Positions 3,011 through 23,767 of a stretch of 64,000 nucleotides of DNA are shown here, in pieces (the first letter of the stretch is position 1; the number at the start of each line of letters is the position of its first letter). The position numbers and the translations under genes are program-made. The DNA comes from a virus, in IMG/VR virus record IMGVR_UViG_3300017780_006957, positions 32,001 to 96,000 of that record; one strand, 5' to 3'. Under the pieces are notes generated by a model. That model saw nothing but the letters and a program-made list of their open reading frames with translations, was not told the DNA's origin and made no database searches.

Positions 3011-3718
3011 TTAACTGTCTTTAGTTGCAGAAAATCCCAATTGTTTTGCTGTTTTAGGTGATAGCGTTGCATACCACGATCCTTTCTTGCAAAGATCTCC
3101 TGCTTCACCTGTATGCTGACATGTCTTTGAAGTAAGATACTCAGCAAATCGAATCATACCTTCGACATAATCGTCTCCTCCATCGGCGTATACTCGTAGA
3201 GTTCCAAACTTTTCTTTGTATTGAGCGATCTTTGCTTGCTCGGGTTTGGTATGAATGTATAAGTCGCGCATGAACCAACAAGCGATTTTCGATGTAAGTC
3301 TTCGAACCTTCATTGAGAATTTTGCATCAATCTTTGCTCTTTGCTCTGGCGTCGGAGAAGCAAACTTACGAATCACAAATGTGCCTTTGTATGGATTAAA
3401 AATTGCGTTGACTTTCCAGTTAATAGGCTTCCACATTTTTTCATTGATCCAAGCTTTGATCTTTTTATTGGGATTAATTTTGCCCCGTTGAGTATTTTTA
3501 ATATAGTTATCAATACTGCCGAATAGATGATCTACGATTGTCTCCCATCCTTTAGGGCAATCATTCCAGCATCGATGCATTTGTGGTAGCAGTTCGCCAT
3601 CTTCTCCTGTATAGAAAAGGTTAGGATACTTTTTAAACAGATGTTGCTCAAAGTCATAATCTTCTTTGACTTCTGCTTCGATTTTTTCTTTTAGTTCTTT
3701 TACGGTTTTAGTTTTCAT
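3011..3718 (-). CDS. hypothetical phage protein (GWxxI...KEKFGTLRVY type)
   Basis: 235-aa ORF; motif recalled from phage hypotheticals. Confidence 0.75.
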   Translation of the reverse strand: MKTKTVKELKEKIEAEVKEDYDFEQHLFKKYPNLFYTGEDGELLPQMHRCWNDCPKGWETIVDHLFGSIDNYIKNTQRGKINPNKKIKAWINEKMWKPINWKVNAIFNPYKGTFVIRKFASPTPEQRAKIDAKFSMKVRRLTSKIACWFMRDLYIHTKPEQAKIAQYKEKFGTLRVYADGGDDYVEGMIRFAEYLTSKTCQHTGEAGDLCKKGSWYATLSPKTAKQLGFSATKDS

Positions 3719-17359: not shown

Positions 17360-17980
17360 TTATTTATTGTTTAGATAGAATTTTTTTAGCACTACTTTAT
17401 TTAAGCCTCTACGACTTTCGATTTCAGGAATGATTGTTTTACGAATCCAATTTCTTTCATACCTTTGATCTTCGTTGCTCTCATCAATTTGAAGATACTT
17501 GAAAAGATTGTTTTTGTCAACCCAATTTTCAAAATTCTTTTTAATGTTCAAGATGAATGGGCGATAGATAGAAAAAGAATTAAAATCAGTAAATTCTTGA
17601 ATTGGTTTGTGTTCTGGGCAACCTTTTAAAGTATTACTTATATAACTCTCTACAGCGTCTTGTAAATGCTGGCATTGAATAATTGACCCACCCACTTGAG
17701 AAAAGAATTTTAATCTTTCTTTCCTTAGTCCATCTTCAATATTTTTATCAATCTTAATAGAACATTTTTCTGTGATAAGATTAATTTTATAGTCAGAACA
17801 AAATCTTTCGCAAGCCTTTTGCATAAGGTTGTTTTGCGGTCTTTGATTATGATTATAGTGAATAGCTTGAAATTTTTGTCCAGATTTATGAAGAAAATGA
17901 GCGCAAGCTAGACTATCTATACCGCCAGAGATAGCAATACTATAAGTTTTTGGTAGGTATTTTTTATTTATTTTGATCAT
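17360..17980 (-). CDS. tilS: tRNA(Ile)-lysidine synthetase-like protein, PP-loop domain only
   Basis: AISGGIDS PP-loop, HYNH..R, R..FF, QHLQD..E, RP, DESN.....RN.IR. Confidence 0.85.
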   Translation of the reverse strand: MIKINKKYLPKTYSIAISGGIDSLACAHFLHKSGQKFQAIHYNHNQRPQNNLMQKACERFCSDYKINLITEKCSIKIDKNIEDGLRKERLKFFSQVGGSIIQCQHLQDAVESYISNTLKGCPEHKPIQEFTDFNSFSIYRPFILNIKKNFENWVDKNNLFKYLQIDESNEDQRYERNWIRKTIIPEIESRRGLNKVVLKKFYLNNK

Positions 17981-18396: not shown

Positions 18397-18486
18397 TACA
18401 AAAGGTGAGACTCGAACTCACAAAGGACTTTCACGTCCATAACGGTTTATGAAACCGCGCCCTTAACCAATTCGGGTCACTTTTGC
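18397..18486 (-). tRNA. tRNA with CAU anticodon (Ile2/Met) and long variable arm
   Basis: GCAAAAG/CTTTTGT, GCGGT-TTCATAA-ACCGT, V-arm GGAC-GTGAAA-GTCC, T-arm GTGAG-TTCGAGT-CTCAC; no CCA. Confidence 0.85.
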
Positions 18487-18499
18487 ATTATTTAGAAAG

Positions 18500-18577
18500 T
18501 GGTAGTCACGGTGGAATTCGAATCCACACTGTAATGATTTTAAGTCATTTGTCTCCTACCAGTTGGACTACGTGACC
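18500..18577 (-). tRNA. tRNA-Leu(UAA), short variable loop
   Basis: GGTCACG/CGTGACT, AATGA-CTTAAAA-TCATT, encoded CCA. Confidence 0.9.
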
Positions 18578-20043: not shown

Positions 20044-20130
20044 TGGAGCTAAAGGTGAGATTCGAACTCACGGTGCGCTTTCGCATCTCGATTACAAATC
20101 GAGTCCTTTCGACCACTGAGGGACTTTAGC
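20044..20130 (-). tRNA. tRNA-Thr(UGU) with long variable arm
   Basis: GCTAAAG/CTTTAGC, CTCGA-TTTGTAA-TCGAG, V-arm TGCG-AAAG-CGCA, encoded CCA. Confidence 0.85.
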
Positions 20131-20166: not shown

Positions 20167-20238
20167 CTCCCAGTTTTGGCAACGATCCAAACTCACACTG
20201 CTTAACAGGCAGGTCGCACGCCCTGTGCGTTACTGGGA
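20167..20238 (-). tRNA. tRNA-Asn(GUU), atypical T-loop
   Basis: TCCCAGT/ACTGGGA-G, CTGC-CTGTTAA-GCAG, T-loop ATCGTTG. Confidence 0.8.
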
Positions 20239-20269
20239 TTTATATCTTATTATATAAGAATAAGAAAGT

Positions 20270-20438
20270 TTTTCTATCGCTGAAGAAGTCCCCCGTTTCC
20301 ACAGAGGTCAATGACCCTTCTTCACTTTTCTACAAGTACTAACTCGCTGGAGAGTTTGACCACGCGATGCGTAGCTACACTCATTTTCCTGTCCGTTTTC
20401 TCTGAATACTTCGGGCGATCAAAACGCACGATAGAAAA
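20270..20438 (-). ncRNA. structured ncRNA A (169 nt)
   Basis: 10-bp terminal stem UUUUCUAUCG/CGAUAGAAAA, several internal hairpins, GC-rich, no ORF. Confidence 0.65.
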
Positions 20439-20442
20439 TTGA

Positions 20443-20504
20443 CCAATTCCTGACCTGCCGCGCACTACTTTATCAGGTATAGCCGCTTGCAGTCAGGCAA
20501 TTGG
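20443..20504 (-). ncRNA. structured ncRNA B (62-nt bulged hairpin)
   Basis: CCAAUU-G-CCUGAC-UGC / GCA-G-GUCAGG-AAUUGG. Confidence 0.55.
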
Positions 20505-20507
20505 AAA

Positions 20508-20677
20508 TGGTTTTGCGGCTCAGGTCGCTATATCGTGCAATGTGTTCCCAACCGAATAATCGTCTCGAAAGACTCGATTTCTATCAACTGCATTAACCCA
20601 TCACTGAATCGTGCGTTTTATGTTGACTACCTTGCACAAACGTCTTAGTTGACGAATACCCCTCAATGACCGCAAAA
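20508..20677 (-). ncRNA. structured ncRNA C (170 nt, ends CCA)
   Basis: terminal stem UUUUGCGG/CCGCAAAA plus CCA; internal GUGCAA/UUGCAC and GUCU-UUCG-AGAC. Confidence 0.65.
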
Positions 20678-20681
20678 TTAG

Positions 20682-20838
20682 TTTATCTGTCAGACCTTAA
20701 CGCCTATGCCCCTCGCGCATAGACAGCATCTTCGCTGGTTCACGGATGGGCCACTTTGTAGTGCCGTAAGTGCAGCACCTCAGACGGATCTCCAGCATAG
20801 GTCTTCACAGCTGTGTGTAGATATTCTCGACAGATAAA
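20682..20838 (-). ncRNA. structured ncRNA D (157 nt)
   Basis: 10-bp terminal stem UUUAUCUGUC/GACAGAUAAA; internal GCUGG/CCAGC and CUAUGC/GCAUAG. Confidence 0.65.
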
Positions 20839-20841
20839 AAA

Positions 20842-20955
20842 TGCAGAAGAGATTGGATTCGAACCAATATTGTACCATACTGCCCTTGGGCATCCAAGGA
20901 ATCGAACCTTAACGAAATAACCGTCGCTATTGCATTGCCGTTATGCTACTCTTCT
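20842..20955 (-). ncRNA. tRNA-like RNA E with expanded anticodon region containing a second T-arm
   Basis: AGAAGAG/CUCUUCU acceptor, D-arm GCAU-AACGGCA-AUGC, T-arm AUUGG-UUCGAAU-CCAAU, extra AAGG-UUCGAUU-CCUU. Confidence 0.75.
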
Positions 20956-20963
20956 AAAAAAGG

Positions 20964-21036
20964 TGGCTAGAGTGTTTGTGGAATCTCAGGAATTGCATCC
21001 TGTTATACTAGTAACTTGCCAGATTCCCTCTAGCCA
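20964..21036 (-). ncRNA. structured ncRNA F (73 nt)
   Basis: UGGCUAGAG/CUCUAGCCA, GGAAUCU/AGAUUCC, apical CAGGA/UCCUG hairpin. Confidence 0.65.
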
Positions 21037-21048
21037 TTGAAAATTTGT

Positions 21049-21142
21049 CCATAGAGTATGCACTCTCAATGCGTTATGCAGGACTGGCACTAGCTATATG
21101 AATCCTTATAGCTGGAGAAGGAAGCCCGTAACCTTCATATGG
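21049..21142 (-). ncRNA. structured ncRNA G (multi-hairpin)
   Basis: CCAUA/UAUGG closing GAAGG/CCUUC, AGCUAUA/UAUAGCU and AGAGU/ACUCU hairpins. Confidence 0.55.
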
Positions 21143-21154
21143 CTTTTTATATTT

Positions 21155-21233
21155 ACAATGTATGGTTATTAACCCACACGGAATTTCAAGCATTAACCCA
21201 CTACGTATATGGTAACTCACCGATTTCCATTGC
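21155..21233 (-). ncRNA. putative ncRNA H with two GUGGGUUAAU repeats
   Basis: GCAAUG/CAUUGU closing stem, AU-rich flanks. Confidence 0.45.
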
Positions 21234-21242
21234 AAAAATTAA

Positions 21243-21357
21243 TATTCCTTTAATGGTAGGCGTTGTCGCATTCAAATCTCTACCCACCACAATCGCTTCA
21301 AGATTCTCGTTCGCTTACCGCACGGGGCATGAAGCCCCTTGTCCCATTAAGGGAATA
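21243..21357 (-). ncRNA. structured ncRNA I (115 nt)
   Basis: UAUUCCCUUAAUGG/CCAUUAAAGGAAUA terminal stem; GGGGC-UUCAU-GCCCC hairpin. Confidence 0.6.
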
Positions 21358-21376
21358 AAATTTTTAAAATTTTTAT

Positions 21377-21389
21377 TTATTAAAGAACA
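21377..21389 (-). promoter_or_regulatory. boxA-like antitermination element
   Basis: TGTTCTTTAATAA vs rrn boxA TGCTCTTTAACAA; preceded by leader hairpins. Confidence 0.6.
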
Positions 21390-21463
21390 GTATTTTATCT
21401 CTAATCGTTGACTAGAGAGGATCTTTCGAATCTGAGTGACTCCTATTCAATCGATCTATTTAG

Positions 21464-21492
21464 ATAATAACTTATGTTTTCGCTTATGTCAA
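21464..21492 (-). promoter_or_regulatory. sigma70-type promoter of the stable-RNA operon
   Basis: TTGACA-17-TATTAT. Confidence 0.8.
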
Positions 21493-21495
21493 CTT

Positions 21496-21714
21496 TTATC
21501 TTAGATTTAATTCACTCTCTACTTTTCGGAATCTGTCATCAGAATGCCAGATTTCATTTACTTGTGGAGTATAAACTCCATCAAGGGTTTGAATCGGGAC
21601 GTTCTTTTGCAGCTTTAAAGTAGAAGGTTGATAAATTTTCCAGTTCTTCACGTTCTCGTTTGAGTTCCATACGCAGGAGGTCTGCGCGATCAGCAGAAGA
21701 GCTGCCCCCATCAT
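21496..21714 (-). CDS. putative lipoprotein (o-spanin/Rz1-like), overlapping upstream gene
   Basis: hydrophobic MMGAALLLIAQTS-C lipobox-like segment; start embedded in 21581..21850 in another frame (exact start uncertain). Confidence 0.5.
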   Translation of the reverse strand: MMGAALLLIAQTSCVWNSNENVKNWKIYQPSTLKLQKNVPIQTLDGVYTPQVNEIWHSDDRFRKVESELNLR

Positions 21715-21850
21715 TACGCAGCTTTTCAATTTCGTCAAGTATTTCTTTTTGTCTATTTTTTGATTTGATTCTGATTTCATAATAAAATGATTTGTTTTTT
21801 AAGTTTAAATAAAGTTCCAGTGATTTAATTAAAGAAGTTAAAATTCCCAT
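21581..21850 (-). CDS. hypothetical coiled-coil protein (possible i-spanin partner)
   Basis: amphipathic N-terminus plus coiled coil; overlap geometry like Rz/Rz1. Confidence 0.5.
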   Translation of the reverse strand: MGILTSLIKSLELYLNLKNKSFYYEIRIKSKNRQKEILDEIEKLRNDGGSSSADRADLLRMELKREREELENLSTFYFKAAKERPDSNP

Positions 21851-21856
21851 ATTAAA

Positions 21857-22420
21857 TTATATAAAACTTTTCCACTCTTTTCTAATTTTGGACACCTGAA
21901 GAAAAAGATTAGGAATTACTGGAGCTTTTACTATTTCATTTTTAATATTAAAAAATGGAGAATGATCGGACTTCTTTTGATTGCAGTCAAGACAAGCCAA
22001 AGTCCTATTTTCGTGTTCATCAGTTCCGCCCTTACTTTTTGGTTTGATGTGATCAATAGTAAGATCTGCGATTTTAAATTTCTTTAAACAATACTGGCAA
22101 ATAGAATCATGAATTCTGCTTAATTCCGCCAAAGATAGTTTTTTCTTTTTGGGTTTTTTAAAAAATTTACTGGTTACAATAATAATTGTTGGAATTGGCC
22201 AAGAGCGTTTTGCGCTACGAAGAACGGGCTGATCTTCATGGAACTCCGCATAATCATTCCACTTCTCTATAGAATCAAACAAATTATTGTTTTTATCTAA
22301 AGCGGTGACATTTTGACTTAATAGATGCGCGAAAGCAGCCTTTGCTGTGATGGCAGTGATAGGTTGCCAAGCGTTATTAAGTAAGAGTGTGGTTCTAGTA
22401 TTGCAATCTACGATGTTCAT
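21857..22420 (-). CDS. HNH endonuclease (McrA-like)
   Basis: CQYC...LTIDHIKPKSKGG...N...AC..CN..K. Confidence 0.85.
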   Translation of the reverse strand: MNIVDCNTRTTLLLNNAWQPITAITAKAAFAHLLSQNVTALDKNNNLFDSIEKWNDYAEFHEDQPVLRSAKRSWPIPTIIIVTSKFFKKPKKKKLSLAELSRIHDSICQYCLKKFKIADLTIDHIKPKSKGGTDEHENRTLACLDCNQKKSDHSPFFNIKNEIVKAPVIPNLFLQVSKIRKEWKSFI

Positions 22421-23097
22421 TAATCAATAACTTGCCCCAAAAACATTGGGAAGATTTTAGATAAAGCTATAGCGCATTGTTTTGCAACTTCAATATGCTC
22501 TTTCTGAGTCCCATTGCCAGTGCGAACTTCAAGATAATGAATCCAACTACGAATAGTTCCGTTCATATATAAACGACTCATCATATTTCCTTCTGGAAGA
22601 ACTGATCGAGCTACTTCTTTTGCTATCCCATTTTCAATAGCCCAATCATAAGTTTCTTTTGCTTTTTCAATTAATTGTTTTTGTCTAACTTCCCAACGAT
22701 AAGAAAGAACTTCATTATTTGTTTCTACTGAATTTTGACGATTCTTTGTATCTTGAAGACGGGCTTCGCGGACTACCATTGGCAATACAGAAGTAGGATC
22801 TGCATAACGCTGAGAAAATTCTTGAAAAGCAAATGATCTGTGGCGAAGAATTTGGCGAGCAATATCTCTTGTCGTTTCGATTTCAAGAACAGCGTTACAC
22901 ATTTCAAATGGTGAAAAATGTTTGTGTTTAAGAAGATAATTAATCAACTTATCTGCCGTATCCATATTCATTTGATTAGAAGGATTAGACACTCTTCCGC
23001 AAAATGTGATTAGATCGGAAATGGTTTCCACTCCTGTTCCAGCAAAATAATCTTTATCAGGAATTGTATAGCCGACTAGTTTTACTTTATTACTCAT
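22420..23097 (-). CDS. thyX: FAD-dependent thymidylate synthase
   Basis: H.SPFE, RQILRHRSFAFQEFSQRY, E.AR.VLP, TQKEH. Confidence 0.95.
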   Translation of the reverse strand: MSNKVKLVGYTIPDKDYFAGTGVETISDLITFCGRVSNPSNQMNMDTADKLINYLLKHKHFSPFEMCNAVLEIETTRDIARQILRHRSFAFQEFSQRYADPTSVLPMVVREARLQDTKNRQNSVETNNEVLSYRWEVRQKQLIEKAKETYDWAIENGIAKEVARSVLPEGNMMSRLYMNGTIRSWIHYLEVRTGNGTQKEHIEVAKQCAIALSKIFPMFLGQVID

Positions 23098-23767
23098 TAG
23101 TTTTTAAATTGTATTGATTTTCATAAAAAGAACAAGACAAATCTCCATTATTATAATATTTTTTATCAGACTTTGGGTAATTCGAAATAATTTCATAGTT
23201 CAATGAAGCTTTCATTTGTTTCTTTTGCTTCTTTGAGCCAACAAAAAAGAAATATCTGTGCTTTGGCATAGGTTTTATCTTTTGTATATTATTTTCTTTG
23301 GCCCAAATAGCTGGCTTAGTAATGCCTAGCTTATCTCTAAGGGTCATTGGGTGGGTTGCCACTCCATCAATCAAATAAAGACTGTCATGAGATACTGTTG
23401 CGCCTGTATATAGCCAATTTGTTGCTTGATAAACTATACCACTATGTCCATGAGCCGAATCTGCATAGCTTATAATCGCACAGAACCGCTCTTTAAGCAT
23501 TTTAGTAGATTGACTAATCAAAAATGATGCGGCGTTTTTTACATCATTATCTACGACTAATCTAGTCAATTCATAAAGTCTAAAATCCCTATCTTTAAAT
23601 GCGTATTTTTGAATAGGTGCTGACGGTTGACCAAAGCAACATACTCCAATAAGTTTGTTATCATTAAAAAGACCAAAGCCTTCCCAGAAAATGCCAAGTC
23701 TTTTGGAGTAGTGTTTATTTGATATGATTAAATCAGCTATTGATTTATCAATTCTTTTGACGGTCAT
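23090..23767 (-). CDS. Mom-like DNA adenine modification protein
   Basis: HYS, ELTRL, AS.LIS, ISYAD...GH.G.VYQATNW.YTG. Confidence 0.75.
   Translation of the reverse strand: MTVKRIDKSIADLIISNKHYSKRLGIFWEGFGLFNDNKLIGVCCFGQPSAPIQKYAFKDRDFRLYELTRLVVDNDVKNAASFLISQSTKMLKERFCAIISYADSAHGHSGIVYQATNWLYTGATVSHDSLYLIDGVATHPMTLRDKLGITKPAIWAKENNIQKIKPMPKHRYFFFVGSKKQKKQMKASLNYEIISNYPKSDKKYYNNGDLSCSFYENQYNLKTNE

Follow-up and report, generated by a model that had tools for sequence, protein, structure and literature searches.

A lake phage carries a gene for an anticodon-less, tRNA-shaped RNA from a conserved two-T-arm family

Genomic setting of the element

The DNA analysed here (the window) is a stretch of 64,000 nucleotides of viral origin with a GC content of about 33%, and the sequencing runs that contain its sequence are freshwater or lake metagenomes. 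Its genes are those of a phage and include a DnaE-type polymerase, a DnaB-like helicase, RIIA, a J-like tail protein, and ThyX, together with Mom, a lysozyme, an HNH endonuclease, and a TilS-like PP-loop protein. No close cultured relative of this phage was found. On the minus strand, from 20955 to 20842, lies a gene of 114 bases for a tRNA-shaped RNA without an anticodon (the element), 606 nt upstream of a six-tRNA array on the same strand. ARAGORN called six ordinary tRNAs nearby and made no call for the element.

Several neighbouring genes deserve mention in their own right. A gene for a TilS-type PP-loop ATPase (PF01171, E 2e-30) at 17360-17980 on the minus strand lies inside the tRNA cluster and adjoins tRNA(CAU), which suggests a phage-made lysidine tRNA-Ile2. 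Two minus-strand tRNAs have long variable arms, one with anticodon CAU (90 nt, A73, 18397-18486) and one with anticodon UGU (84 nt, U73, 20047-20130); both anticodons normally belong to class I tRNAs. No long arm is present in the tRNA that reads as Leu by its anticodon UAA (18503-18577). The long-arm CAU and UGU molecules may be re-identified or 'extra-arm' phage tRNAs. Genes for the HNH endonuclease, ThyX, and a Mom-family protein stand in a row (21857-23767, minus strand) just upstream of the non-coding region that holds the element, and the pair of Mom and ThyX hints that the DNA of the window phage is modified.

The non-coding region itself is an ORF-poor, GC-richer stretch of about 1.2 kb (20240-21460, minus strand), and a putative promoter stands upstream of its cassettes (Table 1). 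The region resembles a succession of small structured-RNA cassettes, in each of which a closing stem is followed by ACC or GCA and a U-run. Relatives (L183 at 1140-1700, L184, and L186) differ by whole cassettes, joined at T-runs. Rfam searches of 20230-21870 with lax filters and E values up to 10, GOLLD and ROOL included, returned nothing beyond the generic tRNA match of the element. Within its closing stem, the conserved cassette of about 80 nt that neighbours the element has the inner stems GGAAUC/GAUUCC and CAGGA/UCCUG, and in L183 to L185 the inner hairpin shows a compensatory change to CGGGG/CCCCG. The 3' end of this cassette resembles a tRNA acceptor end minus the last A.

Table 1. Features of the element and its immediate surroundings, in window coordinates, listed from upstream to downstream on the minus strand
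Feature	RNA positions	Coordinates	Strand	Basis
Sigma-70-like promoter, TTGACA-17-TATTAT		21464..21492	-	11/12 consensus matches; consensus match only
Neighbouring structured-RNA cassette, 8-bp closing stem GGCUAGAG/CUCUAGCC, then ACC and U6		20962..21040	-	88 nt identical in L181 despite 84%-alike downstream flank
TTTTTTA direct repeat, upstream copy (its A is RNA position 1)		20955..20961	-	Indel comparison
Acceptor 5' strand, AGAAGAG	1-7	20949..20955	-	Perfect pairing with 20845-20851; family-wide covariation at each of the 7 acceptor pairs
U8 A9 and D-arm, GCAU-AACGGCA-AUGC	8-24	20932..20948	-	High-posterior alignment to the tRNA model and to family model R2
Hairpin A, AAUAGC-GACG-GUUAUU, in the anticodon-arm place	25-40	20916..20931	-	MFE fold (whole RNA and sub-segment) and R2 alignment
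T-arm 1 (second T-arm), UAAGG-UUCGAUU-CCUUG	45-61	20895..20911	-	3/5 pairs covary in the family
Hairpin B, UGCC-CAAG-GGCA	64-75	20881..20892	-	Hairpin at this position in 32/32 folded members; both modelled pairs covary
D-loop-like mini-hairpin, G-UAUGGUA-C	76-84	20872..20880	-	Closing pair covaries
T-arm 2 (canonical), AUUGG-UUCGAAU-CCAAU	88-104	20852..20868	-	tRNA model and R2; family cells 100% paired, 3/5 pairs covary
Acceptor 3' strand, CUCUUCU, discriminator G (20844), then CA		20842..20851	-	Read from the sequence
TTTTTTA direct repeat, downstream copy (U-run after the RNA)		20835..20841	-	Indel boundary ambiguous by exactly 7 nt

Structure of the RNA

The outer frame of the molecule is that of a tRNA. 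As the original prediction had it, the acceptor stem is perfect, with seven Watson-Crick pairs, and the canonical U8 and A9, the D-arm, and the T-arm are all present (sequences in Table 1); the D-arm has the equivalents of G18 and G19. Acceptor, D-arm, and T-arm occur with their conserved tertiary nucleotides, and a 5-bp anticodon stem with a 7-nt loop (U33, R37) is absent. The Rfam tRNA model (RF00005) matches 20844-20955 on the minus strand with 40.4 bits (gathering score 29) and spans all 71 model positions, skipping 13 of them and placing a 50-nt insertion where the anticodon arm would stand. Generic tRNA is the sole Rfam match for the element, both at the gathering score and at E values up to 10. 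The element, which has A3-U70, shows no match to tmRNA (RF00023), and no Rfam intron family and no group I or bulge-helix-bulge motif was seen in it. The z-score of its minimum free energy (MFE) is -2.65.

The insert is an ordered set of four small structures (hairpin A, T-arm 1, hairpin B, and the D-loop-like mini-hairpin). Hairpin A has a 6-bp stem capped by a GACG tetraloop. Short linkers join it to T-arm 1 (UCGU), join T-arm 1 to hairpin B (GA), and precede T-arm 2 (AAU), and six U residues follow the 3' CA. The second T-arm was predicted correctly, as (U)AAGG-UUCGAUU-CCUU(G), and the proposed UGCCC/GGGCA hairpin is found in the slightly shorter form of hairpin B. The one helix that must be redrawn is GACGG/UUCGUU, in place of which both the MFE fold and the family model give hairpin A. 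The absence of a 7-nt anticodon loop is seen in the RF00005 alignment that skips the arm and in a family without a conserved 7-nt loop. Since no segment of the element carries an anticodon loop, removal of the insert would not restore a tRNA; with no intron family matching either, the sequence gives no sign of the splicing to an ordinary tRNA that had been named as a way for the original prediction to fail. The minus-strand location, the UAUGGUA mini-hairpin, and the presence/absence polymorphism described below are additions to that prediction.

A conserved family of two-T-arm RNAs

When IMG/VR was first scanned for pairs of T-loops separated by 20-50 nt, more than 120 contigs of mixed kinds were returned. 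These hits were heterogeneous, with tRNAs followed by 3'-half duplicates and other tRNA-like classes among them, and such units were not pooled with the family. A strict pattern, in which two T-loops are combined with the UAUGGUA motif, gave 53 IMG/VR contigs, most of which have a 7-bp acceptor stem closing a unit of 109-124 nt and share an order of parts. Covariance model R1 separated true members (at least 55 bits) from ordinary tRNAs and other tRNA-like units (at most 52 bits). Covariance model R2 (46 hits, 33 distinct), from which the window sequence was excluded, matches the window element over the full length of the model with 67.1 bits (E 1.7e-14), compared with at most 29 bits for the tRNAs of the window. 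The family holds at least 34 distinct sequences from IMG/VR phage contigs, with units of the same 109-124 nt. Their common order is acceptor, D-arm, capped hairpin A, T-arm 1, hairpin B, UAUGGUA mini-hairpin, T-arm 2, and acceptor 3' strand, and the window copy has all of these parts in this order.

Covariation supports the fold throughout. In alignment A5, which is itself fitted to the family model, 93% of cells are paired compared with 67% in shuffles, none of 500 shuffles reaches the observed values, 23 of 28 pairs change on both sides, and controls with slid partners pair at 50% at most. All seven helices covary (acceptor, D-arm, hairpin A, T-arm 1, hairpin B, the UAUGGUA closing pair, and T-arm 2). 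The closing pair of the UAUGGUA loop, for example, is G-C in 24 of 33 sequences, A-U in three, C-G in three, and G-U in one. RNAalifold, run on a plain MAFFT alignment, arrived independently at the acceptor, the two T-arms, and the mini-hairpin and showed compensatory changes in them. The MAFFT-only alignment misaligned hairpins A and B, so per-sequence folds and the model-based alignment were used. Single-sequence folding places hairpins A and B in 32 of 32 members, with stem sequences that are unrelated. The loops of hairpin A range from 4 to 10 nt (GGCA in 17 of the 34 distinct members) and those of hairpin B are mostly tetraloops. In the per-sequence folds, no part of the family has a conserved 7-nt loop with U33.

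The T-loop and UAUGGUA motifs were demanded by the search patterns, and their invariance therefore holds by construction. The homolog comparison called for by the original prediction shows both T-arms kept in the sampled homologs, with the caveat that the scan patterns required the T-loop cores. A pattern without T-arm 1 returned 74 contigs and only three new true members; the remaining hits fall below the family cut-off and look like adjacent ordinary tRNAs. The unbiased test of T-loop 1 comes from two distinct sequences, both of which keep UUCGAAU.

U8 is present in 33 of 34 members, and acceptor stems vary so widely that they do not point to one particular aminoacyl-tRNA synthetase or binding partner. 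No covariation with the discriminator was found for a pairing of the loop's UGGU with ACCA 3' ends. The window copy is an outlying member: it departs from the family's A73 and its class II-like D-stem of 2-3 bp with loop AAAUGGUAAA, and has instead G73, a 4-bp D-stem, and a 7-nt loop. It is nevertheless an intact member of a conserved, essentially phage-restricted family. The conserved and covarying insert of the homologs lends support to the anticodon-less, tRNA-shaped RNA of the original prediction and is the opposite of the unconserved insert expected of a decayed fusion. Overall, we are highly confident that the family and its fold are real, and only a little less so that its members do not decode.

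Cassette polymorphism at the locus

The window copy, the only one that R2 finds in the window, is a gain/loss cassette bounded by T-runs. In the nearest relative found (G001, the same contig as L182), both flanks are 96-97% identical and exactly 120 nt are missing, which correspond to the 113-nt unit plus one TTTTTTA. The empty site is also found in L186 and in L181, a metagenome contig that matches the window at 84% identity in the downstream flank. The empty joint (120 nt skipped, 7 nt ambiguous) recurs in DNA contigs from two further lake studies, and filled and empty forms coexist in one sample of these studies. Given that three relatives are empty, one of them more distant, gain in the window lineage is the simpler history, although repeated loss may have occurred instead. 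The polymorphism provides near-identical natural phage populations with and without the element for comparison.

Other relatives carry more at this site. In L183 and L185, an extra structured module of 95 nt, with ACC-U6 at its end, precedes a variant of the element that is 100 nt long. This variant retains the acceptor, both T-arms, and the trailing GCA-U5, with a compensatory A-U to G-C change in T-arm 1 of L183, and reaches 41 bits with R2. Its hairpin B is replaced by UUGUUG-GAAA-CAACAA, and its D-arm has merged with hairpin A into one structure that bears a GGCA loop. In L184 the whole L183-type block is absent and a T-run stands at the joint. The L183-type arrangement also appears with high word depth in RNA-library contigs X15 and X16 from one estuary study; as DNA carry-over is possible and assembled contigs do not display ends and strand, these were not counted as proof of expression. 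With a window copy that is dispensable in nature and an interior that is remodelled in L183, the relative closest to this copy, constraint in this lineage may be loose.

Transposition or retroposition was considered, as the inserted unit reads from RNA position 1 to the end of the U-run. It is not the preferred reading, given that the adjacent cassettes likewise have T-runs at their ends and are exchanged there; recombination at these runs would explain the 7-nt 'duplication'. A contig from DNA run X2, of another lake sample, shares the downstream flank (with a loose end at 20839) and runs on, upstream of the T-run, into dissimilar sequence that ends in ...GCUUGCUCCA-A, which suggests another tRNA-like cargo at the same site (20835-20961).

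Distribution and genomic context

Among 185,579 prokaryote species genomes (one for each species), the strict pattern found only seven contigs, each belonging to a metagenome-assembled genome, two of which score strongly with R2. A blastn search of the locus and two family members against 50,697 cultured-phage records gave no match, and an exact 29-mer of the element had no match in IMG/VR. Family members matched only generic tRNA or, below threshold, tmRNA in Rfam 15, and no description of phage RNAs with two T-arms or without an anticodon was found in the searched literature. The part of a 2023 survey of phage structured RNAs that was consulted mentions tRNA-like candidates and describes no two-T-arm architecture (PMC10690425). 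AcrIIIA1, which binds host tRNA fragments, is unrelated to the element (PMC11662646).

Where tRNAs occur within 3 kb of a member, all lie on the member's strand. Of the 24 loci that have tRNAs close by, 14, the window among them, place the element at the head of the array, and seven members are solitary, with no tRNA within 3 kb. Pfam searches of the genes that flank solitary members found no shared partner gene. ARAGORN called none of the family members; consequently, phage tRNA complements compiled with such finders may omit the family.

Proposed function and alternative explanations

Phage tRNA arrays are now viewed as tools of codon supply and of counter-defence. A conserved array member that is unable to decode indicates that some phage 'tRNA genes' do something else. 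Given that the element cannot decode, it is most likely a mimic of the tRNA body, matured like a tRNA. The explanation that we favour as a whole, with modest confidence, is that the element is a conserved tRNA-like RNA that would be transcribed, matured by the tRNA pathway, and act off the ribosome as a mimic. A transcript started at the promoter near 21490 would include it along with the small-RNA cassettes that lie upstream, RNase P and 3' processing enzymes would excise it, and CCA would be added as it is to tRNAs. Established tRNA biology makes a molecule with this outer frame an expected substrate for RNase P, 3' trimming, and CCA addition, and the same frame would form the coaxial stack of acceptor and T-arm and the elbow between D-loop and T-loop. 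A second elbow may be built by the second T-arm and the UAUGGUA loop, which bears the GG of a D-loop; the original suggestion of two elbow-like surfaces is plausible in the light of this conserved D-loop-like hairpin beside the normal D-loop. The two roles put forward in the original prediction, a decoy and a tRNA scaffold that shields an RNA module placed within it, are conjectures.

Away from the ribosome, such a mimic of the tRNA body could occupy a factor that recognises the acceptor, T-arm, or elbow, the candidates being a host tRNA-targeting defence enzyme or a tRNA-handling enzyme. Action as a mimic or sponge is a tentative proposal for the mechanism, to which we give less than even weight. 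Were the RNA a decoy or sponge, its existence would point to host factors that read the body of the tRNA. A broader reading, which we regard as speculative and on the whole improbable, would make the family a widespread and so far unrecognised class of non-decoding 'double-elbow' mimics, matured and perhaps also charged as tRNAs are, that serve as counter-defence decoys or sponges against host factors indifferent to the anticodon and pass from phage to phage as self-contained cassettes. The topology that belongs to this reading, equally speculative, would be two interlocked tRNA top halves, one formed by the acceptor and T-arm 2 and the other by hairpin B and T-arm 1, with each of the D-type loops tethered to both.

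Of the alternatives to a mimic, the one that survives best, although we hold it to be unlikely, is a non-ribosomal amino-acid carrier or tmRNA-like decoy. The RNA would be charged by a synthetase that ignores the anticodon and would donate to a transferase or engage EF-Tu/SmpB; if charged, it would be a new non-ribosomal aminoacyl carrier. Under identity rules based on the E. coli Leu, Ala, and Ser sets, the synthetase might be LeuRS, which would recognise A73 together with the class II-type D-arm, AlaRS, which would recognise G3.U70, or SerRS in the case of the window copy with its G73, and this assignment is as unlikely as the reading that it belongs to. The case is built on A73 (32 of 34 members), G3.U70 (10 of 34), an encoded CCA (5 of 34), the weak tmRNA-clan matches of two members other than the window copy (16.5 and 18.9 bits, compared with a gathering score of 47), and a family D-arm that is nearest to that of tRNA-Leu (mean score 6.8 compared with at most 5.8 for other isotypes, in a set of 1,464 ARAGORN tRNA calls from the fetched loci with duplicate sequences removed). 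The D-arm likeness is weak, however, and its margin small; acceptor stems are very diverse, G3.U70 is absent from most members, and the window copy combines G73 with a class I-type D-arm. Moreover, neither the genes of the window nor Pfam searches of the flanks of solitary members revealed a linked transferase, SmpB, or synthetase gene.

Next in probability, and quite unlikely, is a module that acts in cis on processing or termination, in which the tRNA shape would recruit RNase P or RNase Z to separate the tRNA array from the small-RNA cassettes upstream of it, or the acceptor stem and U-run would terminate transcription, and the free RNA would have no role. tRNA-like punctuation of this kind occurs in organelles and in viral TMERs. 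The frequent position of the element at the head of tRNA arrays would fit, as would its place in the window between structured cassettes that end in a stem, ACC or GCA, and a U-run. However, a plain tRNA or hairpin would suffice for this purpose, the conserved and covarying second T-arm, hairpin B, and UAUGGUA loop are left unexplained, and several members are solitary.

The two readings that follow are very improbable. In the first, the element would be cargo in the variable linker of a structured non-coding RNA of about 1.2 kb, as tRNAs at times are in the GOLLD linker, and would work only within that assembly. The ORF-poor, GC-richer region of this size near the tRNA island of a lake phage and the variable cargo at the site among relatives agree with it; the GOLLD and ROOL searches (E up to 10, lax filters) that found no match and the many members that lie in plain tRNA arrays or alone, which are the majority, do not. 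In the second, by a shade the more doubtful, the element would be a decayed tRNA fusion or the remnant of a duplication, functionless in the window phage. Natural populations often have the site empty, so that the element is dispensable, the L183 interior is remodelled, and the order of its parts could stem from tandem duplication of a tRNA; yet every helix of the window copy is intact, with 67 bits on an independent family model, and compensatory changes are found in all helices across diverse contigs. A decoding tRNA is a negligible prospect and largely refuted by the family comparison: an alternative fold GACG-GUUAUUU-CGUU with a 4-bp stem, a 7-nt loop, U33, and anticodon UAU can be drawn in the window sequence, or the insert might be a spliced intron, but the family has no conserved 7-nt loop and shows a GGCA tetraloop there in half of its members, the MFE and family models prefer the tetraloop hairpin, and no group I or bulge-helix-bulge motif was seen in an insert whose removal leaves no anticodon.

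Relation to known tRNA-like RNAs

The non-decoding mimic proposed here can be placed beside several known systems. With canonical tRNAs (RF00005), the family shares the 7-bp acceptor, U8, a D-arm with GG, a 5-bp T-stem with the loop UUCGAAU, a discriminator, and the location and strand of a phage tRNA array. With class II tRNAs (Leu, Ser, Tyr), it shares an extra domain in the place of the long variable arm. Unlike these, it has no anticodon loop, and its 'variable arm' is a three-part domain of about 40 nt composed of a T-arm, a hairpin, and a D-loop-like hairpin. The tRNA-like domain of tmRNA (RF00023) is likewise a tRNA top half without an anticodon, and one clade of the family shares its G3.U70 and A73. 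In contrast to tmRNA, which measures 300 nt or more, the family has no mRNA-like frame and no pseudoknots, is 109-124 nt long, and has a full D-stem, a hairpin in the anticodon place, and two T-arms.

mascRNA and the plant-virus tRNA-like structures are non-decoding mimics of the acceptor, T-arm, and D-arm architecture and are handled by tRNA enzymes. YrlA is another non-decoding RNA that copies tRNA architecture and is handled by tRNA enzymes (PMC4201824). Unlike all of these, to which its members show no Rfam match, the family has a second T-arm and a second D-loop-like loop, and in YrlA, moreover, the tRNA-like module forms part of a longer RNA that has a Ro-binding stem. The interdigitated two-T-loop module resembles the family in combining two T-loop-type motifs in one RNA, and the family loop UGGUA fits the UGNNA half of that module. 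However, the family has complete tRNA-type T-arms 28-50 nt apart, and neither a conserved AGNNA partner nor any sign of interdigitation was found in it. The tRNAs of the GOLLD linker are also variable, tRNA-shaped cargo in a structured non-coding region, beside a phage tRNA island in lake samples (PMC12286853); the element differs from them in that it is not a normal tRNA and stands in a region without a GOLLD or ROOL match. An acceptor-closed molecule that unites two T-arms with two D-type loops is a fold that was found neither in Rfam 15 nor in the searched papers. With the element, phage tRNA mimicry gains a new architectural variant, and a conserved one.

Other phage tRNA-like classes with a second T-arm were seen in contigs L202, L015, L020, L024, L087, L098, and L120. 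A different class of 89-92 nt has the form AGUCAGG...T-arm...T-arm...CCUGACUAC and lacks a D-arm. On the minus strand of L202, positions 3101-3256 hold a 156-nt tRNA-like unit with a second T-arm and a D-arm of the tRNA-Leu type, the acceptor of which (AGUCAGG/CCUGACU-A) is the same as that of a family member 730 nt away.
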